This document shows positions 3,554-56,468 of a stretch of 64,000 nt of DNA, piece after piece. The number at the start of each line of letters is the position of its first letter. Positions within the stretch are counted from its first letter, which is position 1. Source of the stretch: Octopus vulgaris (Eukaryota). The position numbers and the translations under genes were made by a program. A model generated the notes under the pieces. That model saw only the letters and a program-made list of their open reading frames with translations, was not told the DNA's origin and did no database searches. The stretch is taken from contig OX597818.1 of NCBI GenBank assembly GCA_951406725.2, positions 116,870,001 through 116,934,000 on the forward strand, given 5' to 3'.

Positions 3554-3607
<54 letters not shown>

Positions 3608-3859
3608 ACATCCATCCATACATAAATATATACATGCAGGTAATTATTGGGCCACTAGAATATGTAACACACTGCCTAAATACCAATCATGAGCAATTAG
3701 CCTTCTCAAAAGCAGAAAGGAGAAAGCTGATTCGAAGGCTACAGATACAAGCCATCACAGGAACTGTAAAAATCTGTAAAACTTTCTAAAAATGTATCAT
3801 TTAAATATACATATATATATATATGAGCATGTCTAGACATGCAACTAAATGCTTGAGAA

Positions 3860-4130: not shown

Positions 4131-7050
4131 ATTGATGCAAAAACAGCCCTCTGCTATCGTGTAAATATCGGCAGTTTGAAGTGGTCGGGCATTCGAAAAA
4201 CTATATAACTGTCACAACTTTCTATGAGTAAAAGTAGAGAATATATATTATATAGAATAATTTCTGGGGGTATTTAATAGATAATCAAAAGTGAATTTAA
4301 ATTGCATGGCTATCTCAAGGAAGTGCTAGTGTGCAAATACCGGCTGCTTGCAGTGAATGGGCATTGTAAAAAACTGTGGTAGAAGACGAAGTGCAAGTAG
4401 AGAGTAATGTCCCTTGAGGCAACGATTGTTGGTATTTCTTATTTATCTATGAAACGGTGTTTTCGTCCCCTATGGTCGGCATTATTCATTCTGAGGAAAC
4501 TTTGAAGATTATATGAACAATCTCTGGAACATATGTAATGTATGTTCCCACCGTGAACGAACTCGGATGAAAAATATTGATTTTAAGGGGGATCAAGAAA
4601 AACGCCTATACACACATACACACATACACACATACACACATGTATATATTGATATACATAGACACACACATATATATACATACATATATATGTATACACA
4701 CACACACACACACACATATATATATGTATATATATATATGTATATATATATGTATATATATTGATACTATCAAAGATACACACACACTCCTATATATAAG
4801 CATATATGCATTTATGTATGTAAATGCTATTATGCTGTATGTATGTTTGATATTTATATTTCTTTCCTTGTCTCCTGCGTTATTACATCGGTATATAAAC
4901 ACCCGTCGATTCGCCGTTTAAAAATGCTGTAAATTATACCATTAAGCATCAATAACACAAACAAAACGAAGAATCATTAAAGTGATTAAATGAAAGAGTT
5001 GTTAATTAGAAAATGAAGGTTTAAGGTCTTTTTTTCTTTTAAATTTCTACATCATGTTGGCGTTATTCCGCTTTGTATTTTTCGTGTGATTAATTTTTGC
5101 TTTTGCAGTTTTATTTTAATTGTATTTTTTTAATGTTAATTCATTCTTTGTTATCGAATTAGTTCATTTCAGCAAACACAATGTGGACAGGTTTAAGATA
5201 TTATAGATGTCATTGTGGGTGACTTATTGCTTTCAAAAGTCCCACTAGATATTAACTAATCAGATTTGTTACTCCACGCAGTGTGCCGAGTCAGCATGGA
5301 ATAATATTACAAGTATTCTCTGCTCTGAATCACCGCTGATGCCAAGATTGATTGTAGATGCATCTATAAAGAACTTGATAGGATCTTAATAATTAAACGA
5401 TAACTGCAACAGACATCAATCTAAAATAACACTAGTGAAATTATCGCGTATTGTTTCACTTCCATACATATGATTTTTCGCCATTTTGTTTTCATTAATC
5501 AGATCTCCTTTTTTATGTTTTTGCAATTCTGGAATTTGTTTTCGAACAGTCAGTAGGTGGGACACATCTGTTGTAGTTTCAGGCTGCAATTAGAAGATTC
5601 AGAAAATTAATGTTTGCCTTGCACACTGGTAGGTAAATAAATCTGCTTAAATGCAAATTTTTCTATGATTTATTTGGCTGGACTAAATATTGCATGTATA
5701 TGAAGTTTTATTATTTTACAATGTTTTGTATGAGAATCATGGCGCGAAAAAACGTGGTATGATGAAATTTCATCTTCTCAAAACAAATTAACAGACGATC
5801 AATATACTGCGTGTAGTCGTCATTGTAAAACATCGAGAATGCATTTTGTTTTCTTCTAGATACCCTTTTTATGCTTGTTCAACCAACATTCTTTCAAAAA
5901 TCTAATCTCAAAAAACAAAACACAACTGATGACAAATAAACCAGACGAAATAGAATTCTTTATTCAGTAACGACAGTAAAATATCTATAATTATAAGATA
6001 CAGAAATAATTTACTCCCAAACGCATGATAATGCTAATACAATAGCAAGAACAGAATAAACTATCCATGCATTGCAGAAAAGTTCGCTACCGACCAGCCA
6101 TATGACTCGAACTCACATCCCTGCAATTACGTGCCAATTGCTTTAACTTTAAGCTAAGCTGCCCAGTAACGAATTGCGCTGCAATTTCAAGATTTATACA
6201 TCTAGCTTTATAAGACGATTTTTTCTGCAATATATGGATAGTTTATCCTGTTCATGCTTTTGTATTAGCATTATCATGCGTTTGAGAATAAGTTTATTCT
6301 GTATCTTTCAAGACATCTCACTGCTTCTAAAGCAAGCTTTGTTTATTTTCATCGTAAGTTGAATTCATCTATAATTATATATTACTAGGAAAGAAATACC
6401 TGTTATTTTTGTTGGTTTTTGTTTTTTTAAGCAAAAAGTTCCTGATTGAAAGGTGCTGTTATCAAATTCATTTCAGCCACTCTCAACCTATTCCACATTT
6501 ATAGTGTCGGAAACTGTGACCGTGTTTTATTTTCCGTTTTAAATATGATTAAATATGTTCAAGGTTAATTGACTGGTATTGGTAACAGGTCAAAATATAG
6601 AAATTAAAGCTTTATTTGGGGTAATGTAACTCAACGTGTTTCACCAGAATTAAACTGATGCGCTTTCTTTAATCGCATGCTTAGGTTAGACCATATCCAT
6701 CCTCTCCTATATACGTAGAGTTGATATATTTTGTTTGCTTGCTTTGTCTGTTATAACAGTGCAAGAGAATTCGTCTTGTATTGTTATATGGACATCTGTT
6801 AATTCTGAGGTGGCCGTTAGCTAATCTTTATTATATTCGTAGGATTTCCATTTTTACAGCTACTTTTGTTGATGAATAACATTGATAGGCAAGAATGGGT
6901 GGTAAGCTGTTTGTTTCCCAACGAAATTATTCCAGATTCAGTCGCACTGCGTAGCACCTTAAGCAAGTGGTTTCTACCTTGGTTAGCCTGCCTCGGGCTG
7001 ACCAAAGCTTCTAAGAGGATTTGGTAGAATGAAACTGAAAGAGGCCCACC

Positions 7051-16708: not shown

Positions 16709-17123
16709 GGCGGCGAGCTGACAGAAATGTTAGCATGCCGGGCAAAATGCTTAGCGCTATTTCGTCTGCCGTTACTTTCTGAGTTCAAATTCCGCCGAGG
16801 TCGACTTTGCCTTTCATCCTTTCGGGGTCAATTAAATAAATACCAGTTACGCACTGGGGTCGATATAATCGACTTAATCCGTTTGTCTGTCCTTGTTTGT
16901 CCTCTTTATATTTAGCCCCTTGTGGGGTATAAAGAAACAGGTATTTCGTCTGCCGTTACATTCTGAGTTCAAATTCCGCCGAGGTCGACTTTGCCTTTCA
17001 TCCATTCGGAGTCGATTAATTAAGTACCACTTACACACTGGGGTCGATGTAATCGACTTAATACCTTTGTCTGTCCATATTTGTCCCCTCTATGTTTAGC
17101 CCCTTGTGGGTAATAAAGAAATA
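16709..17123 (+). mobile_element. SINE family A dimer with a 16-bp TSD
   Basis: Full head followed by two core units. TSD ggtatgatggttaaaa at 16692-16707 and 17124-17139. Confidence 0.93.
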
Positions 17124-17973
17124 GGTATGATGGTTAAAACTGGAACAATTTTGATCATAGCTCCATTTGCTTACAGTCGAAATGGAGATTAAAGAACACT
17201 AATCATTCAAGCAACCAACGCAATCTTCCAATACATTACAGCATCCAACTGAAATACACTTCCCTGTCTCTATATTTAACCACACTTATTCGCCTACACA
17301 CGAACCATAAGGCAACAGAATGTGCCATTATACATTACATCAAAAATAGCGTAACTAATAGTATATTGCTGTTTATTTTTTGCTTCATATTTAAACATCG
17401 CTTCAAAGTTCTATTTAAAGAAATATATACGTAAAAATCACTTTAAACCCAAATGAAATAACTTCAGTTTACATTAATAGACATAAAGTTTAATTTTCTT
17501 CTTTATTTTTATTTTTTGTCTGTGTATTTAGCATATAGGGAAAACTTAGTCTATGATCAGCACGATTTTCATGATTTGAAAAATGATTAAAGATAAAAAA
17601 AAAAATATATATAATGAGTAGGATTTGCGGAAATTATTTTTTTGTATACAAAAAATTGTTAGTCTATAATAAACACGCGTGATGTGCATGTACATATACG
17701 GTATAATTTATACAGATAATAAATTGCTCACGTATATAAATTCGTAAACACACAAGCTCACATACAAACGCACATACGAACACATTTATATATGTATATG
17801 TACATATTAATTAGTCTTGCATATACCACGTTTTCTTGCATGAAATTCACAGTTTTCTATTAATTTAATATTATCAGCCGTAAAAATAGATATTTAAAAA
17901 ATAGGTTCAGTAAAACAATACAAAAATAATCAATGATAATTTCTTTCTCTTATATTATAAGCTAGAAACCGGT

Positions 17974-37782: not shown

Positions 37783-37834
<52 letters not shown>

Positions 37835-37954
37835 AATCAAGGAACGGCCATAATAGGCCATTCACCCACTAGAAATAACAGCCAAAGCTTCAACCGCAAA
37901 ACAACATTAATTCCGCAAACCAGGAGAAAATTTAAAAAACATTTACCCTGTAAT

Positions 37955-38057
37955 TTCTTATACGATGCACCGTTTCATCTATTGTTTAATTGTAAACTAA
38001 CCTGATTAAATTAAATCAAGCTAATCTTCCATAGGCCGATAGATTCGTCAGTAAGAA
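37955..38057 (-). ncRNA. Type I hammerhead ribozyme, unit 1
   Basis: Minus strand: TTCTTA-CTGACGA-ATCTAT...ATAGAT-GAAA-CGGTGCATCG-TA-TAAGAA. Stems I and II are 6 bp each, and the cleavage triplet is GUA. Confidence 0.88.
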
Positions 38058-38439
38058 CAGCCAGATCGGAGCAGATAATTTTCACGAGGCACTTCTATCC
38101 CTTGCCTCGGCAATATCTGACCTAAAATTTTCAAATCATCGCACTCGCGCCAAATTTATCGGCAGCAAATATAAGCTGCCGATTCCATTACGGAATTAAC
38201 CAGAAAATTCATAATTAATCAATATAGGGTGGCAAAAAATTTCGTAGAATTTTTTTGCCACCAGCGGCCTAGTGGGAAAAAATTAAATAGTCATAGACCA
38301 TTTATAAGTTCAACATCACAATCAAGGAACGGCCATAATAGGCCATTCACCCACTACAAATAACAGCCAAAGCTTCAACCGCAAAACAACATTAATTCCG
38401 CAAACCAGGAGAAAATTTAAAAAACATTTACCCTGTAAT

Positions 38440-38542
38440 TTCTTATACGATGCACCGTTTCATCTATTGTTTAATTGTAAACTAACCTGATTAAATTAAA
38501 TCAAGCCAATCTTCCATAGGCCGATAGATTCGTCAGTAAGAA
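38440..38542 (-). ncRNA. Type I hammerhead ribozyme, unit 2
   Basis: Same fold as 37955-38057. Confidence 0.88.
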
Positions 38543-38925
38543 CAGCCAGATCGGAGCAGATAATTTTCACGAGGCACTTCTATCCCTTGCCTCGGCAATA
38601 TCTGACCTAAAATTTTCAAATCATCGCACTCGCGCCAAATTTATCGGCAGCAAATATAAGCTGCCGATTCCATTACGGAATTAACCAGAAAATTCATAAT
38701 TAATCAATATAGGGTGGCAAAAAATTTCGTAGAATTTTTTTGCCACCAGCGGCCTAGTGGGAAAAAAATTAAATAGTCATAGACCATTTATAAGTTCAAC
38801 ATCACAATCAAGGAACGGCCATAATAGGCCATTCACCCACTACAAATAACAGCCAAAGCTTCAACCGCAAAACAACATTAATTCCGCAAACCAGGAGAAA
38901 ATTAAAAAAACATTTACCCTGTAAT

Positions 38926-39028
38926 TTCTTATACGATGCACCGTTTCATCTATTGTTTAATGGTAAACTAACCTGATTAAATTAAATCAAGCCAATCTTC
39001 CATAGGCCGATAGATTCGTCAGTAAGAA
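38926..39028 (-). ncRNA. Type I hammerhead ribozyme, unit 3
   Basis: Same fold as 37955-38057. Confidence 0.88.
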
Positions 39029-40122
39029 CAGCCAGATCGGAGCAGATAATTTTCACGAGGCACTTCTATCCCTGCCTCGGCAATATCTGACCTAAAATTT
39101 TCAAATCATCGCACTCGCGCCAAATTTATCGGCAGCAAATATAAGCTGCCGATTCCATTACGGAATTAACCAGAAAATTCATAATTAATCAATATAGGGT
39201 GGCAAAAAATTTCGTAGAATTTTTTGCCACCAGCGGCCTAGTGGGAAAAAATTAAATAGTCAAAGACCATTTATAAGTTCAACATCACAATCAAGGAACG
39301 GCCATAATAGGCCATTCACCCACTACAAATAACAGCCAAAGCTTCAACCGCAAAACAACATTAATTCCGCAAACCAGGAGAAAATTAAAATTTTTGAACC
39401 CAAAAATATGAACCCAAAAGCAAAATAGTTGCTCAGGCCTTTGATTTTGTTGTTATCATGACTGGCCAATTAACTGGCCAGTGGTCAAGAGGCGAGGGGA
39501 AATATCCAAATAATTTTTTCATTCACAGTTTAGGAAGCAGAGGAAATTTAGTCGTACCGCTAGCTATAGTAAGTGTAAAAAAACGCAAAGTATTCTTTAT
39601 GAATATTTGTTTCTTGTCTATAAAGCTATAAAAATACCGCATATTTGAAATTAAGCAACGAAGAAATATATCAGTCACTCATTGGAATTATCCCTCAAGA
39701 CTTGCCGAAATTTCATTTGACTGTAAATAGTCACTTCTCGCTATGTTTATAAAATGAGACGTCCTATATCTGATACACCGTATAAGTCATCTATCTATAC
39801 AGGTGGCTTGTTATTTTTTATTATCCATCAAAAATTTTAATTTTAATTTTCTCTTAAATCACTTTTGTAACATTTCCGTATTGTCAGATACACTATGCAA
39901 TGTATGAGAGATAAACATTTATGATTTATCTATTGTGTCAAAAAAAGTAAGATACAGCTGGCTTTGGAAGAGAAGAGACAGGAGCAAAACAACATTTTTG
40001 AAACAATGGAACATAGTTAAATGAAACTATTTAAAATAAATGAAAGTGAGTCTGTGTTTAAATGACACGTAAGAAATGATGAAACGAAGACTTCATTCTC
40101 GCAGTTATATGTAAAAGTATAT

Positions 40123-40540
40123 GGGCGCAGTAATGGCTGTGTGGTAAGTAGCCTGCTTACCAACCACATAGTTCCGGGTTCATTACCTCTGCGTGGTGGG
40201 CAAGTGTCTTTTACTTTAGCCTAGGGCCGACCAAAGCCTTGCGAGTGGATTTGGTAGACGGAAACTGAAAGAAGCCCGTCATATATATGTATATATATAT
40301 ATATGTGTATGTGTGTGTATATGTTTGTGTGTCAGTGTTTGTCCCCCCCCCCCAGCATCGCTTGACAACCGATGCTGGTGTGTTTACGTCACCGTCAATT
40401 AGCGGTTCGGCAAAAGAGAGCAATAGATTAAGTACTAGGCTGACAAAGAATAAGTCCCGAGATCGATCTACTCGACCAAAGGCGGTGCTCCAGCACCGAC
40501 GCAGTCAAATGAGTGAAAGACGTAAAAGAGTAAAAGAGTA
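40123..40540 (+). mobile_element. SINE family B, full length
   Basis: Head ggcgcagtaatggctgtgtggtaag, internal microsatellite and (gtaaaaga)n tail. Confidence 0.92.
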
Positions 40541-41130
40541 ACGTAATCATTGAACAGCTTAATGTCAAAATTTGGAACCATCGAAATTCTTTGAAGTTGT
40601 ACGATGTCCATCACTATGTGAGTTTTGAAAACGATTTCTAGAGCTTGATGTGTAAGTATAAGAATTTATTTGATTTTGATACGCTTAGATAAGTTTAAAA
40701 ATTATACATAATAGCATTTTCGAGTTTTACATGGGGAAAATTGTTCGAGAAAGTGTAAAGCATGTAAAATCATTCTTTTCTAGTGGTTCACGAAGTTATT
40801 TGACTTTCAACTGAATTAATATTATCAAGATCAAGAAAGAATGCAACATTCTGCTCCTCAATAAACTGAAATGAGGATTATTACACAATCTTCGAAGACA
40901 GCGACACGCATGACATCAAAGTTGCTGATAGTTATGCACTTAAGCAACAACAATTCCATTAAACTACAATTCAAATTGCACGTTAAGATAACAATTTTAT
41001 TGTAATACGTCCTGTTTGATGTGTCCAATGAAATTGCTTTGTGCACTTCTTTTCCCCCCATTTCAAGACGCTATTAATGTGTATGTTAATGAATGTATGT
41101 ATGTGTGAATCCATACAAATGTGCATGAAG

Positions 41131-41188
<58 letters not shown>

Positions 41189-42079
41189 CATGCATCCGTC
41201 CGTCCGTCCGTCCGTCCGTCTGTCTGTCTGTCTAACTGTCTAACTGTCTATCTATCTAACTGTCTATCTATCTAACTGTCTATCTATCTAACTGTCTATC
41301 TATCTAACTGTCTATCTAAGATCTGGGGTCGATTTCCTCGACTAAAGGCGGTGCTCTAGCATGACCGCAGTCAAATGACTGAAACAAGTAAAAAGAATAC
41401 ATACCACAGGAGTAAATCTCTTTATATAATAATACTTTGAATGTAACTCCCGAGAAAGAGCAAAGGTAATTACCCGATCAACGACGGATATTACTACAAA
41501 TATCTTCATAAAATAGCGACACGGTAAAGAAGACCATTAAGATAACAATGATTGTGAATATAACCGCCGAGGATGCTTTGAGCCATGAAAATGTACAAGA
41601 CAATGCCTGAATATTGTCAGCAGTCCATAAACACACAATGCAATCATAAAGCATGTAGAAGATGCATTAGTTACACAAAGATAAGCTTTGTTATGAAATC
41701 TTCTGCAGGTATTTCGGGACGACAATAGCTTCGTTGCTCAGCTTGTAGGCGTGAACGTTGTAATGAGGAGTGAATCAGCCTGCTCCAAGTATAGTATCTT
41801 CTTAAGTCCAATGTCATCATGATCCTCTTTCTAACTCCGGCTGTCTCCTAACTGGTTATCTCCATTGTGGGTTCTTTAATTTGCTTGAGTTCCAAACCAG
41901 ACATCGGCCAAACGTAGAGAAATGAGCTTGCTGGAAAACTGTGGCAGGGACTTTTACTGGAAAATGTGCTTTCATGTAATCCTTTGACAAGACCCTGTTG
42001 CTTATTGGCCCAAACTCACTGCATTTGGAAACTCTGCAATTTTCTTAGGAACATTATTAGGCTTTGAATTTTACTGATC

Positions 42080-42430
42080 TCATCTCAGTGTTCATCGTCT
42101 TCCAGGGACGTTCTTCCACTTTCAAAGCGTTAATGCCATTCGATACATTGCATACGACTCATTGTCTCGTCGCTGTATGCTTGGCGAAGCTGGCTCAATG
42201 TCTTTGTAGCAGACTTCCAAAGTTTAAAAGCAAAATTTCACGTGGTTCTTTGAACCAACTTTCTGTCATTGATAAAATCGCAGACTGCAGCATATACGTG
42301 ATCAGAAAAACACAAATTTGGCAACAAGCGAAGTTTACACACGCACCGTCATATGAAGGTCACTGTCAGCTTTCACTGCGCACACAACCATGTGCTGCGA
42401 TCTGTCGGTCTGCTATAGAACTGGTCACTA
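42080..42430 (-). mobile_element. Mariner 5' fragment, same family as 248-630
   Basis: The minus strand reads KSATKTLSQLRQAYSDETMSRMQCIEWH*RFESGRTSLEDDE. The leader aligns with 270-360. Confidence 0.8.
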
Positions 42431-42441
42431 TATATATATAT

Positions 42442-42844
42442 AAATTATAAATTAGGGTATCTACGAGATACCATGGCGGGCATTTTGTACTGGCCATGAT
42501 GCATACGTGCATATATATCTATGTATACGTTCGTATATATAAGTATTCGTATGTTGTATTTATGTTTCTCTTCTGTGTGTATTCTAAGGACGAGGCAAAG
42601 CATTCATAAATGCAAAGTCAGAAATCCGGGATCTAGAATTATCCAGTAATTTTTTACTAGTTTCATCTTCTCTCTTTGTTTTCTCTCCGTGTTGTGATAT
42701 GGACAATTACGGTGGTTTTCAGCATGGTGGTATCTCGTAGATACCCTAATTTATAATTTTAATAATTACTACCTTTGAAGGTTATTTTTTCCATGCTGGC
42801 CACTTGATAAAATCGTTATTTTATTTTAAATTAACGATCTTATC

Positions 42845-42848
<4 letters not shown>
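42442..42848 (+). mobile_element. (TA)n-flanked element related to the 497-bp HHR family, with a 32-bp inverted repeat and a variant HHR fold
   Basis: Inverted repeat at 42442-42473 and 42728-42759. HHR-like fold at 42581-42639. The 3' part is homologous to the reverse complement of 53764-53905. Confidence 0.7.
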
Positions 42849-42899
<51 letters not shown>

Positions 42900-42963
42900 C
42901 GCCATGATAGATCGCTAGCCACTACACATTCTATATTTTCTTTCCTGCTTTCTCTCTGTGTTC

Positions 42964-42999
42964 CTTCCTGTAGAAGAGCGTAGGCTCGAAACGTTAAAG
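42964..42999 (+). ncRNA. Minimal HHR-like motif, A6U variant
   Basis: cttc-CTGTAGA-a-GAGC-gtag-GCTC-GAAA-cg-TT-aaag, the same layout as 21665-21699. It lies in a short element that follows (TA)n. Confidence 0.55.
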
Positions 43000-43796
43000 A
43001 GCCTTTTAGACGATCCCCCAGCACTCCCGCAGTCTAACGACTGAAATAAGTGACATGTATATCTAGCATTCATAACTTGGCTCTACCTTATATAATATAT
43101 AACAGCATGTATCCAGATTAAATCATCATAATTTTTACTACCAAACTTGTAATTCTACAGTGAATAATTTTCAATTATATATTTCCATTCTATATTTCTG
43201 TTATTGCCTTGTGATTTACAATTACAGAAAATAAATAATAGGAATTTTTGTTTTAATTAAATTAATTATCGAAAAATGCTACCATTGAGTGCAACGCTAT
43301 TTGTTATAGATATTATCATGGAAGGAATACATCGAAATATTTATACAGTGATTCAATATAAACGTTCAGAGAAAATGCTGGAAGACATTTTTCGATTTCC
43401 ATAAAGAAATATTTATCTTTCCATTACAATTATCGTAAGATATTTTGAAGAATCTTCGTGGCATTAATTGTATAAGTTGTTCGGTACATAATTCGATTAA
43501 TTTTAAAAGTAATAGTTTCTACAGTAATTATTACTTATACTTAATAACAGTCAGTACTAACTTCATATACCTAAAAGAACATTTGCCTTCATATTTTTCA
43601 AACATAATGTTATGTTCCGTCTAATGATTTCAGAACTACTGCAATTTGTTGTATATGGTGGCTTACTTTGTCAAAGTCGACTTCAGGCTCGTTTAAGCGG
43701 TTACCTATAAGGTTTCCTCAGACCCACACAAACTTGGCACCTGCTTTACAATGTAGTGCAACAGTTGTCTCCCGTTCATAAGTAAATTTCACATAA

Positions 43797-44110
43797 CGGG
43801 CACTCCGTCAGTTACGACGACGAGTGTTCAAACTGATACGGTCAACGGAACAACCTAATCGTGAAATTAACGTGCGAATGATTGGTCACTCACTCTACAA
43901 ACACGGGTACTCTTAACGCAGTTACTTGAAAGGTTCTGCGTGACACAAAGTTTGGCTCTTTGAATTACACGTACTACTAAATATTTCCAGCGGAGTGGAC
44001 TAAAGCAGCGTGAAATAAACTCACTTGCTGAAGGATACAATGCGCCGCCAAGAATGGAACACACGACGGTACGGTCGTGAGGCGAATACAGTACCCACTA
44101 AGCCACGCCT
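43797..44110 (-). mobile_element. SINE family C/D
   Basis: Minus-strand head ggcgtggcttagtggg...gtgttccattc. The tail is shared with 10082 and 13930. Confidence 0.7.
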
Positions 44111-44157
44111 ATTTACACCGACTGTTCACATAGAGCAATATTACTAACGTTATTGAA

Positions 44158-44695
44158 GGCGGCGAGGTTGACTTTAACTTTCATCCTTTCGGGATCGATA
44201 AAATAAGTACCAGTTATGCACTGGGGTCTATGTAATCAACTTATTCCGTTTGTCTATCCTTGTTTGTCTCCTCTGTGTGTAGCCCCTTGTGGGGAGTAAA
44301 GAAATAAGAAAAGTTGGCACGCCGGACGAAATGCTTAGCCGTATTTCGCCTGTCGTTACGTTCTGAGTTCAAATTCCGCCGAGGTCGACTTTGCCTTTCA
44401 TCCTTTCGGTGTCGATTATATAAGTACCAGTTACGCACTGGGGTCGATGTAATTGACTTAATCCGTTTGTCTGTCGTTGTTTGTCCTCTCTGTGTTTAGC
44501 TCCTTGTGGGTAGTAATGAAATAGGCATTTCGTCTGTCCTTACCTTCTGAGTCCAAATTCCGCCGAGGTAGATTTTGCGTTTCATTCCTTCGGGTGAAGG
44601 GCCGATAAATTAAGCACCAGTTGCGTACTGAGGTCAATCTAATCGACTGGCCCCTTCCCCCAAAATTTCAGGTCTTGTGCCTAGAGTAGAAAAGA
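44158..44695 (+). mobile_element. SINE family A trimer with a probable TSD
   Basis: Three core units, flanked by attactaac(g/t)ttatt at about 44140 and 44696. Confidence 0.88.
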
Positions 44696-45726
44696 TTACT
44701 AACTTTATTTTCAGCAAATTTCTTGACATCCCCGGAATGTACGACGAAAAATCTGGCTTATTGTTTAATACCCTTTTGACAAATACTTAAGAACATAATA
44801 TTCTCTTTAACCTACATTTTAATAATAGTGTGTTATTTAGAGTGCACGGAAATCAGACGAACTTCTTTTGTTTGTTAACTCGGCTTTCTTTCTGTTGATT
44901 AATCCGTCACCATATTTTCAGTCAAATGGGATGTGGAAAAATACCTTACCGAAGAGAACCATGCTTACCTCACCTAAAATAACATACACATGATTCAAAA
45001 CGCAATTCCAGCATCGATCTGTGCACTTTATTGTTCTAAAATTAAATAAAGGAAACCTAAACCTGTGAATGCATGCATCCGTCCCTCTGTCCATCCGTCC
45101 ACCCGTCCATCCATCCATCCATCCATCCATCCATCCATCCATCCGTCCGTCCGTCCGTCCGTCCGTCTGTCCGTCGAACATTGATAAGAAGTTTGCAAAT
45201 CTAATAGTCAAGGTACACTTTCAGATTCATAACCATTATTATTCGAGGAAGAGGATACATAGCAATCCGTCTGGAACAAAGTATGGCTAAACTTGGTTTC
45301 TTGGGGAGAAACTGCAAACCCTTAATTCATAAGCTACAAAGTATCACGATATCTGGGACTACGAAAATCTGCATGATCTGAAGATTTAAAGGATAACGCG
45401 TAACTTATGATATTTTCCTTCACAACCTTGCAACAAACTCGGTGGCTGGTCAAAATTTACTCTAAATTATAAACAGAAAAGAAGCTATGCAAACAGGCAT
45501 GGAAACACATTCTTCTAAATACGGCTTTATTCTAAGTGCAGCCTTATTCGAATGGCACAATGCGCCGCCAAGAATAGAACTCACAACCGTATGATTGTTA
45601 GTCGGATACCGTTTGTTTATCTGTCGGGAAGATGTAGATGGCTGTAAACTCCTGCGGTACCGAAAATTACACAACCACCTATTTACAAAATACTACCCCA
45701 TATTTTGAATATCATAAATTCATAGT

Positions 45727-45855
45727 TTACATTATTTACATTTGACGGATATTTGTCCTCATCTTGTTTGTTGTTATCAACATTTCATCTGATATATCCC
45801 CCAGCCTTCATTAGGTACCTTGGGGAAATTTCGAACCTGGGTTTCCATTCCTAAG

Positions 45856-45900
<45 letters not shown>

Positions 45901-45968
45901 TCATTGCCTGCAATCGATCTCGGAATCTTGGGCTTAGTAGCCCGGACTCTTAACCACTACGCCATATA
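45727..45968 (-). mobile_element. tRNA-headed SINE-like element with an (AAT)n spacer and a degenerate HHR tail
   Basis: Minus strand: A box tggcgtagtgg, B-box-like gagatcgattgc, (aat)n, then ggtac-CTAATGA-aggctg...cagat-GAAA-tgtt. Homologous to 63111-63680. Confidence 0.75.
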
Positions 45969-46847
45969 CCCGTAGGCATATAGAACTGTATCATTAATTC
46001 ACTTGTGTATGGCAAGGCTCCATAGCGCAGGTAAAGAAAATAAATACAATTCTTTTTAATTGGTATGTAGTATGAAATGAAACACTGCCGAAATGATATT
46101 TTAATGGCGGTAAACATATATGCAAAGTATTGGTAAGTATTGGTGGTAGAAATGAAAGTAATATGCGATATTGGAAGTAGGGCGAGCTGGCAGAGTGGTT
46201 AGCACGCCGAGAGAAATTCTTAGCAATGTTAATAAAGTAAAATTACATTATTGACATTGTTGTACAAATCACGCACTGGTGAGGAATGGAGTGTATAATT
46301 GGGAATAGAAAAATGGAACTTAACGCTACCTTGAACTTCATTATTACAAATAGGAGAGAATGGGTTATGTTCCTAAACAAGTTTTACTGCTGAGAGTGTT
46401 TGCTATTTTAAAGGTAAATATACGTTCAGTTTTAAAGCGCGGGTCACCGAGTGAACTTCAAGCAAATTCCAATATCTGAACACAAAAAAATACTAGAAAT
46501 AGGTAACTTAATGAAATATTTGAGATAATTAAATATGTAATAACAATTCCTGCAGATTAACTCCAATATCTCAACATCCTTTCTACTAGGCCTAAAATTT
46601 GTGGGAGGGGTAAGTCATTTATATCGACCCCAGTACTCAATTGGTACTGAATTTATAGATCCCGAATGGAGGAAAGGCAAAGTCGACCTCGGTGGAATTT
46701 GAACTCAGAACGTAGCGTCAGACGAAATACCAATTTCTTTATTGCCCACCATCTAATGAACTGGGTGAAGCTGGAAACGGAAGATCCTTACTGACATCCG
46801 CTAACTCCCCTAGTTGGTCGACACAGTAGTGTTTCCTTGCAGATACT

Positions 46848-47002
46848 CGGCGCAGGCGTGGCTATGGGATAAGACGTCTGCTTCCCAGCCACGAGGTTTT
46901 CGGGTTCAGTCCCGCTGCGTGGCAACTTGGGCAAGACTCTTTGACTATATCCCTGGGCCGACCAAAGCTCTGAGAGTGTATTTGGTAGACGGGAACCGAA
47001 AG

Positions 47003-47075
<73 letters not shown>

Positions 47076-47290
47076 TGTGGGTGTGTGTGTGTGTGTAATT
47101 TGCCTCTGCGTTTTATCCACACCACTGATTGGTTCTGTTTACGCTCCCATAACTTAGCGGTTCGATAAAAACAAAACGAACGAATAAGTAAAAGGTTTAT
47201 TATATAAATACTGGTGTCCTTTCATTCAACTAAACCCATTCTTCAAAGCAGTGCACCAGCATGGCCGCAGTCTAATAACAAAAATGTAAA
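46848..47290 (+). mobile_element. SINE family B, diverged
   Basis: Head ggcgcaggcgtggctatggg, internal (TG)n and family B tail. Confidence 0.85.
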
Positions 47291-47755
47291 AGGCTTAAAG
47301 TCTAAAAGTACCTGCATGTTCGGTGGTAAGTGTAACAGGACCAATACTTTCAAGAGAAATTCCTCTCAGGAATTATTTTCGACCATTTCCTTAGTACTTC
47401 ATAGTAGTTGTGAAAGTCTTTTATAGCCTCAAGTTTCACTGTTTCAAAATTTCACATAACACTTTAGATGAGAGCTGGAAGCGAGTTTTAATATCTCTAG
47501 TTTAATTTCCAGGTTGGAAATTATACCTGTAGGAGCTGTAATTAAGTCCTTTATTTCACCATTTAAGGGTGGCGGGAGAACGCTTATTGATAAATTGAGC
47601 TAGTGAGATTCTGGCAGTATTTTGTTAACGGAAAATTAAGCTTCCAACTGCAAGAGTCCAACTACATTATATCTAGTCCGAGGAGGTGATGTGTCGGAAA
47701 TGATACGACACGGAACTCGTGAGGTGAAAATGTATACCAAAATGCACACACACAA

Positions 47756-47817
<62 letters not shown>

Positions 47818-48100
47818 ACACACACGTCTTTAATCGTCATGTGTATCAGTCATTAGACTGCGGCCATACGTGGACGTAAACATAGGAACATTGGTTGTTG
47901 AGCTCTGGTAGGGGACAAATCTACTCACAAAAAAAACACACACACAGATACATATATATATATATATGTAGGTGAGAAAGTTGGTGTGTGAAAGCACGTG
48001 GTTGGATGTATATAAAATAGAAAAGAGTGTAAAAACTACCGAAGGCTTATTTTATAAGGTTAAAGAATATGTTTACGTCGTTATATATATATATATATAT

Positions 48101-48394
48101 TTCAACAATTGAGGGTAAAAATTAATTAATTAATCAATTTCACCAAGTGTTCAGTATGCAAAGGGACCATTTAAGGCGAATTCAAATTATTACATTATAT
48201 AAAAGGGCTTAGTAAAATAAATTACTTTGCCGCATACTGAACTCATTAGAAATAGCAGCTAAAAAAACTTTTTTAAAACTATTTCCAATACTTAAAGATT
48301 TTCTTTAAGTATTGGAAATAGTTTTAAAAAAGTTTTTTTAGCTGCTATTTCTAATGAGTTCAGTATGCGGCAAAGTAATTTATTTTACTAAGCC

Positions 48395-48404
<10 letters not shown>
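48101..48404. repeat. (TA)n-flanked element ending in a perfect palindrome with 103-bp arms
   Basis: 48196-48298 is the exact reverse complement of 48302-48404, with a 3-nt spacer. Confidence 0.93.
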
Positions 48405-48475
<71 letters not shown>

Positions 48476-49498
48476 GCCTAACGTAGGATAACATTTTTTC
48501 CGAAAAAAAAAAATTTATCAATGGCCAGCATATAAAAAATTACCTTTAAAGGTTAAATTTATAAATAAATATATAAATATTTATTTATATATGTATATGT
48601 ATATTCAACGGGCCCCTTTCAGCCTCCTACAATATTCCGTCACAAGGTTTTGGTCGGCCCCTGACTGCAGTAGAAGATACTTGCCTGTGATTCCACATAG
48701 TGGTACCAAACACAGGACCTTGAAGTTGGGGAGCAAACATTTTACCACAGGGTCACACCTACGCTCGTAAGGCCACACCTGCGATTCTCAATATATCAGA
48801 AATGAAACGACAGATTGACGCTTGTAGCTAATATGCCAATAACACCGTGGCTCTCAACTGGCGTCTATATTTGAAGTTGTTGTTGACAAACAACAGCAAC
48901 AATTTTATTCCGCTGAATACACGTCATTGATTAGTTGAAATTACCGAAATACGACAACTTTAACAAAAAATAACTTCCAAAAACAGAATTTTCTCAACAA
49001 CGCCAAGAGTAAAAGATGTTTTATGTGACACATTCGACTAGTATACGAAGTTTGAAAGTGTTTAGTTACAAAAAATTATTTCTAAAATCTGTCGGTTAAA
49101 CGATAAAGATTCCATACTAAAATTAAAATTTTATTCATTTTTAGCTCTCAGAATATTTGCATATATTTATTTGTACAACAGCTTTTTGAATGCAACATCT
49201 TGGAAGAGAGAATCGGTATGGTTGTTACAATCTTTATTTCATGAAATATAGTATTTATTTGCATGAAAAATGTTCTTAGTTTAAACACCTCATGATAGAA
49301 TTGATCATGATGCGTTTACGACGTTTTGTATTGGGCGAGAATAATTCTCTATTCCTATTTGCAGTGACTAGCGCTTAAATATTTATGAAGAATAATTCAA
49401 CATGTAAGTAATTTTTTCATTAGAATCAATCAAGGATTATTGTTTCTAATCTATCCGTCCGCGCATCCATCCATCTGCCCATACAACCATCTATCTAT

Positions 49499-49575
<77 letters not shown>

Positions 49576-49614
49576 AATATATATATCTATCTGTCTAATT
49601 ATCTATCTATCTAT

Positions 49615-49656
<42 letters not shown>

Positions 49657-50362
49657 GTGTGTATGTGTGTGCGCCTCCAGTGTTTAAAGTAAGAACGAGA
49701 TGGATGGATGGATACACTAAGTAGATAGATGCATAAATATATACATACACATATGTGTGTGTGTATATATCTGTGTATATATGCACACACACACACACAC
49801 ACACGCGCGCAACTGTTTCTAGCTGCATCTTGTGCGTGCATTTGTATACATGTGTCCACAGGTGCGTGTATTTGTTTTTACGCTTGTATTCTATTGTTAT
49901 TTCCAGCCTGTGGGTTCTGGTTTTGCTTATATATATTTTCTTTTCTCTCTTATCTTTGTATTGACGTCATGTCTCTATTCACAAACTAGTTATTTAGAAA
50001 GGTGTTTGCAAATACACAATCTCCATTATATTTTTCGCTTATTTAACGTTGATGTTTGCGCGAATTGTTTCGTCTTCGAAAACAGTTTTTCTGTAGACAG
50101 GAATTGTCACGTACTGGAGTTCTGTCTGTCTTTCATAACCAACTCATTTTTTTATAACAAGTAAACATCAAATCCACTTTTATTATTTATTAATTTTTTT
50201 CTATGACATACAAGTTGAACTAAAGGGGCATGTCAATTAAGAAGAGAATCGGAATGTGGAGTGAACCAGCTGACCTCGAACAAGGCCTCTATAATGAAAA
50301 ACAGAATTAAAAAGAATGAAAATTACTCATGTTTACGAGAGTCTCAACGAGGTATCGAGGAG

Positions 50363-50446
<84 letters not shown>

Positions 50447-50677
50447 CACACACATATATGTATACATACATGAGTATGTGAGTATGTGTGTGCGTGTCTA
50501 TGTGTGTGTGTATCTATACATATGTATATATAGATGTATCTATATATATATGCATATATGAATATATATATGTATATACATGTATGTATATATAAGTATA
50601 CATATATATAAGTATATACCTATATATGTATATATATGCTTATATATATGCATATATATATACATATTAAGCATATG

Positions 50678-50724
<47 letters not shown>

Positions 50725-51417
50725 TTATTTAAAATGAAGACTGACTGACTGCATAATAGTATGTAACATGACTGTTTGAGGCGTGTCTAAGAATTGTTAC
50801 CAGAGTAAATTTTATTATTCTCCAATGCACAATCAGTAATACCCAATCAGTCAGTCTGTCGATCCGTGTAAATGTTATGCACACACACACACGCACACAC
50901 AGAGGCGTGCACACATACGCACACAGACGCGCGCACACACACACACACTCACACACATATACACACGTAGGCAAAGTGCGTCAAATTGGTAGAATCCACA
51001 CAACGACCAATGAAATGCTTTGTGTTCTTTGTACGGTTCGCTGTACTTTTACGTGAAATTTTGCCTCGGCTATTTCACTCCCTTCTTGTTTTTCCTAAGC
51101 TGAAGAATAAATAACGTGTATAGTTTCGTGACTTGGGTGAGAATTAAAACTCTAACAAAATATAAGTATGCCATAAGGAAAAAAACCTTACAATAATAGC
51201 CATCACTAATATACTTTTAAATTCTTTCAATAACTACGGGGAATAACAAAGAACAGATTTCTGTCTTGTCATAACCTCATCAGAAAAGATTTCATTGTAC
51301 GTAGAAAATTAGTAAAGCCAACATCACTTATATATTGGAATTAATTATACGATGTGGAAATAAACTCTTTTATTTGGCTCACATTTTGTGTGCGAAGAGT
51401 AAATAAAATTTTGTATA

Positions 51418-51579
51418 GGCACAGGAGTGGCTGTGTGGTAAGTAGCTTGCTTCCCAACCACATGGTTCCGGGTTCAGTTCCACTGCGTGGTATCTTGGGC
51501 AAGTGTCTTCTACTATAGCCTCGAGCCGACCAAAGGCTTGTGAGTGGATTTGATTGACGGAAACTGAAAGACGCCCGTC

Positions 51580-51673
<94 letters not shown>

Positions 51674-51790
51674 GCATGTATGTATGTATGTATGTATGTG
51701 TGTGCGTGCGTGTGTATGTATGTGTTTCTGTCTGTGTTTGTCCCTCCCCCCCCCACCAAGGCTTGACAACCGATGCTGGTGTGTTTACAC
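51418..51790 (+). mobile_element. SINE family B, 3'-truncated
   Basis: Family B head and internal microsatellite. Confidence 0.9.
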
Positions 51791-52740
51791 AAATCATTTA
51801 ACTCAGAAATCATTTAAACTTCATAAACGTCATCCTGTCTTGAAATGATATTCAAGTTTTTTCCTGCTAAAAATAAAAGAGAACTTTGGCCTGTATACAG
51901 TTTCACAACTAACTAAAAAGTTTTATTCTTTTTGTCATATACGATGAAATATTGTGCATCGAATTTCACAAACTGTGTTTTAGTTGACATTTTTTTTCTC
52001 CTATAACAAACTAAATTATATTTTCTGCCATTTACTATTTTGTAAAAAAAACTCCTTCTATTTCTTGTATATTCTGTCGAGATGAACGTCGGGCCAGATA
52101 TAATCGATAGCAAGAGCAGCTAAAACAACAGCAATAATAAAAATATTTTTTTTTAATATAGACACAAGGCCAGTAATTTTGAGAGTGTGGAGGTGGAGAA
52201 CTCGATTATATCAACCTCAATACGTGACTGTTATCGATTATATCAACCTCGGTTTAATAGACACAAGGCCAACAATTTTGAGAGTAATGGGTGGAGAAAT
52301 TGATTATATCAACCACAATACTTGACTCTTACTAATTTTATCCCTCCAAAAGGATAAACTAACTTCGGCGGAAATTGAACTCAGAACATAAAGGACTAGC
52401 GGAAATGCCGCGAAACATTCTGTTCGTCACGCGAACGATTCTGCCAGTTCCCCGACTTAGCCTATTAACTTCCAAATTTTCTTATTCATAATTTTTGGTG
52501 TTTGCCAGGTGTCTTAGGAGCTATTTTGTGCATTATTTTGTAAATTATGATAAATTTTTCGAAAATTCCCGAAAATGGATATCGCTGAAAAACAGCATAT
52601 TTAACTTTTTTCCATTCAATTGCAATAATAAACATATTAAGTTTGTTAAAACTATAGTATCAAATGACAATGTGCATGAAATATCAATGCATGATATAGA
52701 TGGGAAATGCAGAAAAAAAAAACAAACAAAAAAAAACATT

Positions 52741-53162
52741 GGAGTGGCTGTGTGGTAAGTAGCTTGCTAACCAACCACATGGTTCCGGGTTCAGTCCCAC
52801 TGCGTGGCATCTTGGCCAAATGTCTTCTACTATAGCCTCGGGCCGACCAAAGCCTTGTAAGTGGATTTGGTTGACGGAAACTGAAAGAAGCCCGTCGTAT
52901 ATATGTATATACATATATATATATGTATGTATGTGTGTGTGTGTGTTTGTGTGTCTGTGTTTGTCCCTCTAGCATTGCTTAACAACCGATGCTGGTGTGT
53001 TTACGTCCCCGTCACCTAGCGGTTCGGCAAAAGAGACCGATAGAATAAGTACTGGGCTTACAAAAGAATAAGTCCCGGGTCGATTTGCCTGACTAAAGGC
53101 GGTGCTCCAGCATGGCCGCAGTCAAATGACTGAAACAAGTAAAAGAGTAAAAGAGTAAAAAG
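52741..53162 (+). mobile_element. SINE family B, near-consensus
   Basis: Head, internal (TA)/(TG) tract and (gtaaaaga)n tail. Confidence 0.93.
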
Positions 53163-53993
53163 TATTTTCATAACAGTCGTTATTTTTGTGGTTCAAAAAT
53201 TACGGTCTATGACTTCAACCAGTGTTCAGCTGGTACTTAATTTATCGACGAACTATATACCTGTCTGGCTGTTGAACTGTCTGTACCTATCTATTTACCT
53301 GTGTCTATGTTAATGGGTCCACCTACTTATTTATAAGAATGCCTGTCGAATGCTATAATTCTTTCTGTCCATGTTTTATATCTATCGACTTATCTAACCA
53401 TAATCTTGTATTCTTTTACTTGTTACAATCATTTGTAAGCCTCGTACTTATTTTATCGGTCTCTTTCGCCGACCATGCTAGCTTACAGGAACAAACACAC
53501 TAGCATCGGTTGTCAAACGATAGCGTCGGAGATAAACACGCACAAACACATACATACAACAAACTCAAGAAATATAAGAGAAAAACATAACATTACAAGC
53601 TCGATAGCGAACCGTAGAATTCGTCGTAGCATGTACGAATGTTTATCTTTACATATCTATGAAAATGGCGAGCTTATTCGCAATACATTTCGGTAACAAA
53701 TTGTCTAGTCGGAATAAAAATTCAGTATTGAACTATTCCGGTGAAAAATATAAATTAACAATTGAGGATAAAATCTTTAAAAGAAATTATCAGTAGTCAG
53801 CGTGAAAAACCTCGTAAGAGAAAAATCCGTAAATTCTTCCTCTTTGAAAATATTCATTTATATTATATTGAGGGTACTACTATTCGTAGATACCAACACG
53901 CTAAGAGGGACCAATGCGGTCAAAACTACTAAAAATAAACAAAATTTTACCGAATGCAAAACTTCAAAACACATCATTTTAAAAAAGAATTCA

Positions 53994-54057
53994 GTTACAT
54001 ATCACATGTGATTTCGCATTTAATGCAGAATATGCATTTCATGTTCATCAGTGCAAC
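53994..54057 (-). ncRNA. Type I hammerhead ribozyme
   Basis: Minus strand: GTTGCA-CTGATGA-aCAT-ga-AATGCA-tattc-TGCATT-aa-ATGc-GAAA-TCACATGTGA-TA-TGTAAC. Confidence 0.82.
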
Positions 54058-54437
54058 AAACTCAAGAAATATAAGAGAAAAACATAACATTACAAGCTCG
54101 ATAGCCAACCGTAGAATTCGTCGTAGCATGTACGAATGTTTATCTTTACATATCTATGAAAATGGCGGGCTTATTCGCAATGCATTTCGGTAACAAATTG
54201 TCTAGTCGGAATAAAAATTCAGTATTGAACTATTCCGGTGAAAAATATATATTAACAATTGAGGATAAAATCTTTAAAAGAAATTATCAGTAGTCAATTT
54301 GTTACCGAAATGCATTGCAAATAAGCCCGCCATTTTCATAGATATGTAAAGATAAACATTCGTACATGCTACGACGAATTCTACGGTTGGCTATCGAGCT
54401 TGTAATGTTATGTTTTTCTCTTATATTTCTTGAGTTT

Positions 54438-54501
54438 GTTGTACTGATGAACATGAAATGCATATTCTGCATTAAATGCGAAATCACATGTGATATGTAA
54501 C
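54438..54501 (+). ncRNA. Type I hammerhead ribozyme in the inverted copy
   Basis: GTTGTA-CTGATGA (54444-54450)-stem II-GAAA (54480-54483)-TCACATGTGA-TA-TGTAAC. Confidence 0.8.
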
Positions 54502-54737
54502 TGAATTCTTTTTTAAAATGATGTGTTTTGAAGTTTTGCATTCGGTAAAATTTTGTTTATTTTTCGTAGTTTTGACCGCATTGGTCCCTCTTAGCGTGTT
54601 GGTATCTACGAATAGTAGTACCCTCAATATAATATAAATGAATATTTTCAAAGAGGAAGAAGTTACGGATTTTTTCTCTTACGAGGTTTTTCACGCTGAC
54701 TACTGATAATTTCTTTTAAAGATTTTATCCTTAATTG

Positions 54738-54793
<56 letters not shown>

Positions 54794-55889: not shown

Positions 55890-56468
55890 CCTTTCTAGTA
55901 TAGACACAAGGCCTGGGGTTTAGGGAAGGGGGATAATCGATTACATCAACCCCAGTGCGTAACTGATATTTAATTTATCGACCCTGAAAGAATGAAATGC
56001 AAAGTCGACCTCGGCGGAATTTGAACTCAGAACGTAGCAGCAGACGAAATACCTATTTCTTTACTACCCACAAGGGGATAAACACACAGAGGACAAAAAA
56101 GGACAAACAAACGGATTAAGTCGATTATATCGAACCCAGTGCGTAACTGGTACTTATTTAATTGATCCCGAAAGGATGAAAGGCAAAGTCGACCTCGGCG
56201 GAATTTGAACTCAGAACGTAGCGGCAGACGAAATACCTATTTCTTTACTACCCACAAGGGGATAAACACACAGAGGACAAACAAGGACAGACAAACGGAT
56301 TAAGTCGATTATATCGACCCCAGTGCGTAACTGGTACTTATTTAATTGATCCCGAAAGGATGAAAGGCAAAGTCGACCTCGGCGGAATTTGAACTCAGAA
56401 CGTAACGGCAGACGAGATACTGATAAGCATTTCAAACGGCGTGCTAACGATTCTGCCAGCTCGCCGCC
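55890..56468 (-). mobile_element. SINE family A trimer, period about 182 bp
   Basis: Head at 56468 followed by three tandem cores. Confidence 0.93.

Follow-up and report, generated by a model that had tools for sequence, protein, structure and literature searches.

Hammerhead-bearing octopus retrozymes with two fixed (TA)n junctions, probably copied in trans by a Penelope-like enzyme

The five inserts described here, found in a 64-kb stretch of octopus DNA (the window), are members of five genome-wide families, A to E, of non-coding monomers of 470-560 nt. They are likely to be retrozymes that are copied in trans by a Penelope-like reverse transcriptase (RT)-endonuclease, with two-site (twin) priming and a predicted shared 3' fold. 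The group falls within the described retrozymes as a variant and does not form a separate class. What is new is the presence of two fixed sites, X and Y, the rule that X pairs with Y in the two arms of an insertion, and a 3' domain whose predicted stems are kept by compensatory changes; a literature search outside subscription journals, Repbase, Dfam and preprint supplements found no account of these families, of the domain or of the pairing rule. The preliminary description had proposed a diversified group of hammerhead-bearing non-coding retroelements with the insertion signature of Penelope-like elements (PLEs), and our results support this.

The family E array (37830-39390, minus strand) holds 3.2 copies of a 485-bp unit and is a direct insertion that ends at site Y, next to a (TA)23 target run (37786-37831), and is 5'-truncated at 39390. 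Its type I hammerhead motif, with a long stem II insert, lies at 37961-38051 and is repeated at 38446-38536 and 38932-39022, and its 3' domain, which contains the stems P1 and P4, lies at 38704-38846, with repeats at 38219-38360 and 39189-39329, all on the minus strand. Family A is present as a fold-back insertion (42442-42849, plus strand), TA-rich at either end, with a short inverted Y arm (approximately 42442-42473) and an X arm that ends at a (TA)25 run (42848-42897). Its P1/P4 domain occupies 42716-42853 on the plus strand, with the P1 strands at 42720 and 42791, and its hammerhead motif (42582-42638, plus strand) has a broken core in this copy and an intact core in others. The family D fold-back insertion (48094-48404, minus strand) has its X arm on the left, its inverted Y arm on the right and its domain at 48105-48243. 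A (TA)n run (48399-48475) lies between its Y end and the X end of a 5'-truncated family B fragment of 100 nt (48478-48577, minus strand), which retains P4 but, of P1, just the 3' strand. These D and B copies are too short to hold a hammerhead, which both families have. The family C fold-back insertion (53557-54749, plus strand; 499-bp monomer) has domains at 53758-53907 (minus strand) and 54588-54738 (plus strand) and a hammerhead motif with a palindromic stem III at 54438-54501 (plus strand), mirrored at 53994-54057 (minus strand); its right arm ends at X, at a (TA)22 run (54745-54789), and its left arm at neither X nor Y. As the preliminary description had claimed, the hammerhead-sense 3' end meets (TA)n in all five inserts and the other end is often an inverted copy (A, C and D, three of the five). 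Neither of the PLE proteins searched with matches anything in the window, the PLE protein matches in the family loci all fall outside the monomers, and the monomers are shorter than 620 nt. Copies are abundant: genome-wide, each family has 800-2,700 first-look candidates. The E unit is also covered by contigs of four sequencing runs whose RNA origin is a guess, and these are not counted as evidence.

Tandem copies and type I hammerhead motifs were found in all seven families examined, which include two further ones, F and D5; the monomers measure 476 (A), 471 (B), 499 (C), 558 (D), 485 (E), 472 (F) and 616 nt (D5). All three E units of the window match the strict type I motif. Family C has one hammerhead per arm, with the first stem II position unpaired, and stem II starts in a non-standard way in both A and C. 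These calls rest on our own descriptors and not on Rfam, which, scanned over the window with a cut-off of E <= 1, gave no hammerhead family and only microsatellite-driven miRNA-like noise. All hammerheads examined lie antisense to the motifs named in the preliminary description, as was claimed there. Isolated hammerheads mostly do not adopt the minimum-energy form in predicted folds, which is expected for dimer-type hammerheads according to the available text of PMC4209133. Many fold-back arms cross the cleavage site; in metazoan circles, some unknown mechanism probably keeps the hammerhead from acting in vivo (PMC7229834, available text).

All seven families have two fixed (TA)n junctions, X and Y, which lie 77-114 nt apart. 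Of the X ends sampled over the genome, 103 of 124 are TA-flanked, as are 62 of 69 Y ends (165 of 193 together), compared to 3.1% of random window positions, so the expected enrichment of junctions at (TA)n is clearly present. The sample comprised 168 fetched loci, taken as the best-scoring 40 candidates of the searches and therefore biased toward young, long, X-containing copies; after removal of 17 duplicates and 11 loci cut by the locus edge, 140 distinct insertions remained, 78 inverted (fold-back) and 62 direct. Among the inverted ones, 56 combine X with Y, 15 X with another end, 5 Y with another end and 2 two other ends (22 of the 78 thus have at least one end outside X and Y, which counts against two-site priming), and there is not a single X+X or Y+Y copy. 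Y alone is the end of eight direct insertions. The preliminary description had noted neither the fixed end Y nor the X+Y rule. The same rule holds in 11 of 11 inverted loci of an intact autonomous Hydra-type PLE (15 loci read) and, for a Neptune-like PLE, in all 4 simple inverted loci that were read; the X-Y interval corresponds to the PLE 'tail' in a long version. Inverted ends and AT-rich flanks could also be produced by DNA-level elements, either MITE-like or palindromes arising from microsatellite instability, in which the hammerheads would be incidental. Such elements are very improbable here: the asymmetric fixed ends and the variable 5' truncation largely refute them, the monomers are in tandem, hammerhead motifs occur in 7/7 families, and RT-coding PLEs show the same signature.

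From the monomers, the hammerhead motifs, the two junctions, the X+Y pairing and the compensatory changes, all of which were observed, we infer the following course of events. The arrays would be transcribed into multimeric or circular RNA, in which the P1/P4 domain, together with the motif that precedes P1, would bind the PLE protein (probably dimeric) and offer X and Y as start sites. The RT-endonuclease would nick both (TA)n strands and each nick would prime one site of a single RNA template, uncleaved or circular, giving two cDNAs on opposite strands, one started at X and one at Y. These cDNAs would read through uncleaved hammerheads, in some cases beyond a full unit, and joining of their far ends would produce an inverted insert that has the tail at just one of its ends. 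A single priming event would give a direct, 5'-truncated insert. Work in vitro has shown that both strands are cut and extended by a PLE protein, which initiates at the two internal positions between which the tail lies and accepts uncleaved RNA (Frangieh 2024, PMC11167929).

Alternatively, a single cDNA may prime itself by folding back (PMC3846280), with the endonuclease trimming the intermediate at Y ('EN-mediated resolution', PMC8557442), which would make the inverted arm a duplicate of the first. This would account for the minor variants common to both arms, which also count in favour of twin priming on a single RNA; they were found in 55 of 205 cases within an insertion versus 45 of 2222 between insertions (family A was excluded from this pooled count, as locus L071 is a mirrored duplication), but gene conversion between the arms is another possible source of these variants. 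The idea, taken from L071, that two unrelated RNAs provide the two arms is unsupported, as the arms share minor variants. Some fold-backs (e.g., L083, L098, L171 and L228) have both arms ending at one position, which is expected from a single fold-back and counts against twin priming, and several insertions are near-perfect palindromes, including the D copy of the window (unit positions 218 and 224). Against self-priming, arm lengths are often hundreds of bases apart, the Y arm can exceed the X arm by more than one unit (L005, L006 and L030), Y is the sole end of the eight direct insertions mentioned above, and in vitro the RT starts at both tail boundaries (PMC11167929). Among the 11 X+Y copies of family E, 10 have an X arm that extends past Y, and the lengths of the two arms show no relation. 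We therefore consider self-priming unlikely and prefer two-site priming.

The non-ribozyme 3' domain is about 150 nt long and lies approximately 100-150 nt from the hammerhead. It is predicted to form stem P1 around Y and hairpin P4 before X, and in all families folded Y is inside the P1 loop and X just 3' of P4. Independent folds recovered P1 in seven and P4 in eight of nine cases, and two of the nine (A2 and B) are no more stable than shuffles. With P1 registered by hand, 81 of 84 cells are paired compared to a permuted mean of 69, a count made on related sequences and in a register that we chose. In a structure-blind alignment both sides change in 10 of 12 pairs, which 0 of 500 shuffles reach; MAFFT puts P1 out of register in A, A2, E and F, and this count was made on that alignment unmended. 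The predicted P1 and P4 stems are thus kept by compensatory changes, in agreement with the earlier claim of a conserved non-hammerhead stem, and cagcatgg/ccatgctg (42720/42791) and agcgtg/cacgct (53799/53897) were confirmed at their positions. Families B and C are without the motif that precedes P1. A profile trained on A to E found the unseen family F, and F and D5 each have their own hammerhead, X and Y; covariance models of this domain, proposed earlier as a check, did find further families when applied to the fetched loci.

Likeness in sequence is more restricted than had been thought. When all 10 pairs of families A to E were compared with 300 dinucleotide shuffles, four were clearly above them, namely A-B (z 9.4, 0/300), A-C (z 6.4, 0/300), C-D (z 5.8, 0/300) and A-D; B-C (z 2.2, 8/300) and C-E were marginal, and A-E, B-D, B-E and D-E (z 0.1, 134/300) were at chance, so the claim that the families align above shuffled controls stands for the first four pairs only. 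A-C also scored in a control region elsewhere in the monomers (z 4.3). The ordered motifs reported for A, B and C exist (A on the minus strand, B and C on the plus strand), as does the end motif shared by C and D. For D and E, the reported words exist and independent folds confirm the equivalent stem, but the D-E alignment is no better than that of shuffles. Compensatory changes across families that can no longer be aligned suggest continuing selection. It is possible, if doubtful, that this selection serves the PLE-moved RNA itself (circle stability, ligation or hammerhead control) and that short U/A-rich start sites are all that the RT reads. The domain is found in no sampled PLE, and the probable block of the hammerhead in metazoan circles described in the available text of PMC7229834 would fit such a role. 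However, the domain exactly brackets both start sites in all families folded, and its distance from the hammerhead also argues against this role.

Many PLE families of this genome end at (TA)n and have intact ORFs, among them Neptune-like ones with RT plus GIY-YIG ORFs of 781 aa and Hydra-type ones with ORFs of 899, 727, 842 and about 980 aa, which makes them candidates for active autonomous PLEs. We looked for the partner with a GIY-YIG scan (150 of 6136 candidates scored), Hydra-type protein searches and a DNA search. None of the sampled PLE families has the P1/P4 domain at its own 3' end, so the earlier expectation that a PLE shares the motifs fails within this sample, and the proposal of a single enzyme is unsupported. 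SINE-like parasites often have their 3' end in common with their partner, and the lack of a sampled PLE with the domain therefore weakens the recognition step proposed above. The post-hammerhead regions of 8 PLE lineages and 7 retrozyme families gave no convincing alignment (highest z 3.1 in 56 tests, over a 58-nt segment), and the likeness of the motif before P1 was marginal in three Hydra lineages (2-6 of 200 shuffles) and two Neptune-like ones (8-11 of 200). Tails measure 77-114 nt in the retrozymes, about 70-155 nt in Hydra and about 30-40 nt in Neptune-like PLEs, and two single-copy TA-free chimeras, L208 and L398, both have Hydra bodies. Long tails and chimeras point weakly to Hydra-type PLEs, and we would give a partner of this type, the most likely one, about an even chance. 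The particular Hydra family of L208 was rejected: the F domain is absent from that position in 29 of 30 loci, and L208 is a chimera. A less probable arrangement is that these RNAs are moved by more than one PLE clade, both Neptune-like and Hydra-like, or by a clade now extinct, and that the shared domain is merely ancestral. Ends at (TA)n occur in many lineages of either clade, several of them with intact ORFs, switches between unrelated PLE RNAs occur (L296), and the pre-P1 likeness is marginal in both clades. On the other hand, the selection suggested by the compensatory changes, the retrozyme tails in the Hydra range rather than the Neptune-like one, and the Hydra bodies of both chimeras argue against it.

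How PLE tails and inverted ends form and how retrozymes recruit an RT are described as open questions in PMC8557442, PMC11167929 and the available text of the 2026 preprint. The octopus genome offers a counted rule, that each arm uses a different start site, and a candidate cis-element of about 150 nt with natural compensatory variants, as well as several young intact PLE ORFs, and therefore both questions become testable with the published in vitro assay. If PLE enzymes recognize it, the P1/P4 fold is a possible handle on how they start copying. More tentatively, a protein-free superfamily may have evolved a compact multi-stem scaffold, absent from PLEs, that loads a Hydra-type RT dimer with one start site per active site. 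If so, rolling twin priming on one circle would explain PLE tails and inverted ends generally, and the scaffold would be a portable two-strand insertion signal.

The octopus elements resemble the metazoan non-LTR retrozymes, which consist of non-coding, AT-rich units in tandem, each with a single type I hammerhead (available text of PMC7229834 and of bioRxiv 10.64898/2026.07.22.740005) and for which movement by PLEs via multimeric or circular RNA has been proposed (Cervera and de la Pena 2020, PMC7229834, available text). Their monomers of 470-620 nt compare with 170-400 nt (PMC7229834) and 51-972 nt (Li, Clavereau and Pollet 2026), and a target site, fixed ends, a fold-back rule and a conserved non-ribozyme domain are not described for metazoan retrozymes in the available text of either source. 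There, about 40% of Xenopus families are homologous to a pLTR (Li 2026), whereas no such homology to the sampled PLE families was found for the octopus retrozymes. Plant-type LTR retrozymes, with type III hammerheads in their LTRs, a PBS/PPT and a 4-bp TSD, are not matched, since octopus hammerheads are type I and the ends asymmetric. Several features of non-autonomous PLEs are present: partial tandems, 5' truncation, an inverted 5' copy, a microsatellite target and an optional tail between two fixed 3' ends, here 77-114 nt. In PLEs, two RT start sites bound a tail that is often at one end only, with an inverted 5'-truncated copy and the hammerhead upstream (PMC11167929, PMC8557442, PMC3846280), and a (TA)n bias is known for Naiad, Hydra and Neptune (PMC11167929; Craig 2021, PMC8557442; Arkhipova 2013, PMC3846280). 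Hydra-clade PLEs combine (TA)n insertion with a canonical hammerhead (Craig 2021), as do the octopus retrozymes. The latter differ from the PLEs with a tail of 30-40 nt in that the tail is longer, predicted to be structured and carried by non-coding elements, and the X/Y pairing of tail-bearing inserts (56 X+Y, 0 X+X, 0 Y+Y) has been counted here. Young intact octopus Hydra-type PLEs have, by eye, the RT motifs of the published octopus Hydra protein, together with long tails and X+Y pairing, and their own tails fail to match the P1/P4 model. In L1 twin priming, a second nick primes within the RNA and a 5' inversion results; in the octopus retrozymes the position of the second site does not vary, and the first cDNA mostly extends beyond it.

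Within the window (35.5% GC), the flagged region breaks down into five distinct inserts: A (42442-42849), B (48478-48577), C (53557-54749), D (48094-48404), and E (37830-39390). SINE sequences, one homolog named from Argonauta, and the resemblance of a PLE to a published octopus Hydra protein suggest an octopus genome. Genome searches (2.8 Gb in 227 contigs; the window is C5:116,870,001-116,934,000) indicated that each is a member of a genome-wide retrozyme family, with monomers of 476, 471, 499, 558 and 485 nt for A to E and 2742, 802, 1854, 801 and 1391 first-look candidates, which are not copy numbers. Fresh searches of the genome gave 2427 candidates for a further family, F, and 1283 for another, D5, each with its own hammerhead ribozyme (HHR) motif. 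A type I hammerhead motif is found in each of families A to E (read by eye in A), its stem III short and close to palindromic, and in all five it lies antisense to the motifs of the preliminary description, as had been claimed. HHRs with such a stem III act as dimers, according to PMC4209133. An Rfam scan of the window reported no hammerhead family, and protein searches of the 64 kb gave no match to a Penelope-like element (PLE). Window 42898-43000, directly after the (TA)25 of A, begins a piece of another common repeat, whose relatives elsewhere contain an HHR-like core, and the minus strand of 45760-45860 holds a repeat with a degenerate HHR-like core adjoining a (TAT)n run. An abundant repeat family with a 184-bp period (16758-17128, 55937-56420 and 44307-44594) is probably SINE related.

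In every family, including F and D5, the HHR-sense strand borders (TA)n at two sites, an outer one, X, and another, Y, 77 to 114 nt upstream, the tail being the stretch between them. From 168 loci of the seven families, 17 duplicates and 11 edge-cut loci were removed, leaving 140 insertions; scoring covered only the top 40 candidates of each search, so young and long copies are over-represented. TA runs adjoin 103/124 X ends and 62/69 Y ends, compared to 3.1% of random window positions under the same TA-flank test, which bears out the proposed enrichment of (TA)n at the junctions; they also adjoin 23/62 truncated 5' ends and 8/25 other ends. Among the 78 inverted insertions, 56 combine X with Y, 15 X with another end, 5 Y with another end, and 2 have two other ends, and none is X+X or Y+Y. 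Most queries included X, a bias that would favor recovery of X+X rather than mask it. X+Y accounts for 4 of 9 inverted copies in F and 6 of 10 in D5. At L285 (5183-5700), the Y end of a Hydra-type PLE directly adjoins a D-like fold-back without (TA)n, and in the left flank of L087 a D arm is fused to the fold-back of an unrelated HHR element.

Minor variants were common to both arms in 55/205 cases within an insertion versus 45/2222 between insertions (B, C, D, D5, and E); family A (57/97) was excluded on account of one locus, a mirrored duplication. There (L068/L071, G000:C1:148638447-148642296), a 2.9-kb near-perfect palindrome duplicates an A insertion plus flank, and the arms of the A copy are about 13% different. 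Gene conversion could contribute to the sharing of variants. In E, where the query was the full unit and long copies are favored in the arm-length data, the X arm extends beyond Y in 10/11 X+Y copies, 21/22 arms cross the HHR cleavage position (around unit position 241), and the two arm lengths of X+Y copies are uncorrelated. These features are consistent with strand displacement from two starts on a multimer or circle that was not cleaved. For some copies, which are exact palindromes, a fold-back origin fits equally well. Overall, PLE-driven two-site priming on retrozyme RNA is the most likely account. A PLE protein, with putative dimer use, would bind the 3' domain of multimeric or possibly circular retrozyme RNA and nick both (TA)n strands, priming one cDNA at X and the other at Y. 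The two cDNAs would then be joined into a fold-back insert, and single priming would yield a direct, truncated insert. In this account, the sequences themselves show the junctions, the X+Y pairing, and the covariation, and the protein binding, dimer use, circularity, cleavage, and identity of the partner are inferred. The enzyme side is supported by Frangieh 2024 (PMC11167929), where a PLE protein cuts and extends both target strands, two internal starts bound the tail, a dimer is predicted, and uncleaved RNA is the main substrate.

The 3' domain has a conserved predicted structure. When nine family representatives were folded individually, 7/9 showed a long stem (P1) that encloses a multiloop with Y inside it, and 8/9 showed a terminal hairpin (P4) directly before X; 7/9 folds beat shuffles (z of -2.6 to -6.1) and 2/9 did not. 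The words ggataa...ttatc that had been noticed earlier are the two strands of P4. In a hand-registered P1 of 12 sequences, 81/84 cells pair versus a permuted-strand mean of 69.3 (0/100,000), and in six family representatives 42/42 pair (permuted fraction, 0.0015). In a MAFFT alignment that was not fitted to structure and in which four rows are partly out of register, pairing holds in 89.7% of cells (slid controls, 32 to 49%) and both sides have changed in 10/12 pairs, which 0/500 shuffles equaled; all of these controls (permuted strands, shuffles, and slides) leave the relatedness among the sequences in. The proposed conserved non-HHR stem is supported. A profile trained on A to E found F, which was not in the training set, and a covariance model of the domain found more lineages in DNA flanking the fetched loci: L017, L164, L166, and L177 have a direct end at (TA)n, L035 and L118 end at mixed or short repeats, and L028 has no direct (TA)n at its end. 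Directly upstream of P1, an 11- to 12-nt motif is shared by A, D, D5, and E; it has a variant form in F and is absent from B and C. Many more type I HHR elements among the fetched loci end at (TA)n without P1/P4, some of them being 3' ends of Hydra-type PLEs (L189 and L291).

Likeness in primary sequence is less general. The motifs and both stems of the preliminary description lie where it places them. One natural monomer was taken from each family, and local alignments of the final 175 nt were compared with 300 dinucleotide shuffles. The z scores were 9.4 for A-B, 6.4 for A-C, 5.8 for C-D, and 4.4 for A-D and weaker for B-C (2.2) and C-E (2.1), with A-E, B-D, B-E, and D-E at chance level. The motif sets shared by A, B, and C and by C and D therefore stand as sequence, and the set shared by D and E does not. 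A-C also scored (z of 4.3) in a control taken from another part of the monomers; all reverse-complement controls were below 1.9.

PLE lineages terminating at (TA)n are numerous in this genome. One family, of Neptune/Nematis type by its CxxC linker as judged against PMC8557442, has intact 781-aa RT plus GIY-YIG open reading frames (ORFs) and a tail of about 35 to 40 nt; in four simple inverted loci read from the Neptune-like family, the tail is on one arm only. Several Hydra-type families (L271-L290, L331-L360, and L391-L410), which were not among the scored matches of the Pfam GIY-YIG scan, include many intact ORFs, which are 899, 727, 842, or about 980 aa long. The 899-aa family, whose tail measures about 155 nt, shows X+Y in 11/11 inverted loci (15 loci read); the other Hydra-type tails are about 70 to 110 nt by eye. 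An autonomous PLE sharing the motifs had been predicted, but no sampled family, some of whose loci stop short of the 3' end, carries P1/P4 at its own end; when eight post-HHR PLE regions were aligned directly to seven retrozymes, nothing convincing emerged. In two single loci, L398 and L208, a Hydra-type body runs straight into a retrozyme domain of like orientation, without intervening (TA)n. L398 (G000:C13:27726000-27733500) contains a full-length element (2083-6581) with an intact 842-aa frame, and a C-like domain stands in place of its own HHR end. Among 121 Hydra-type loci that include an ORF end, a scan that missed L208 found one TA-free join; the GIY-YIG set gave 0/67, with five neighbors separated by (TA)n. 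Template switching, or a deletion between neighboring insertions, could account for both joins, which are therefore weak evidence on the partner.

The young Neptune-like PLE (L136, G000:C16:20834000-20843000, 1406-5090; L139; L147) has a second, upstream frame of up to 479 aa that overlaps the RT-EN frame and has no Pfam match; this is unusual compared to single-ORF PLEs, although it could reflect a 5' intron arrangement. L296/L196 (G000:C24:41769000-41773000) is a cross-clade chimera, a Neptune-like PLE with a Hydra-type ORF piece inside its 3' UTR. The PLE-1 group (L113, L115, L130, and related loci) has an HHR with a U3-A8 core variant, a natural covariation according to PMC4209133.

In the literature outside closed journals and repeat databases, we found nothing on these retrozyme families, no conserved non-ribozyme domain in retrozymes, and neither tails this long nor a counted X+Y rule. 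The feature is real; the element class itself is already known. Retrozymes and their PLE link have been published (PMC7229834; bioRxiv 10.64898/2026.07.22.740005), as have PLE tails, inverted copies, and the (TA)n bias (PMC11167929, PMC8557442, and PMC3846280). The conserved start-site domain and the strict two-site rule make a still-open mechanism concretely testable. The Hydra-type tails of this genome, at about 70 to 155 nt, are far longer than the published 30 to 40 nt.
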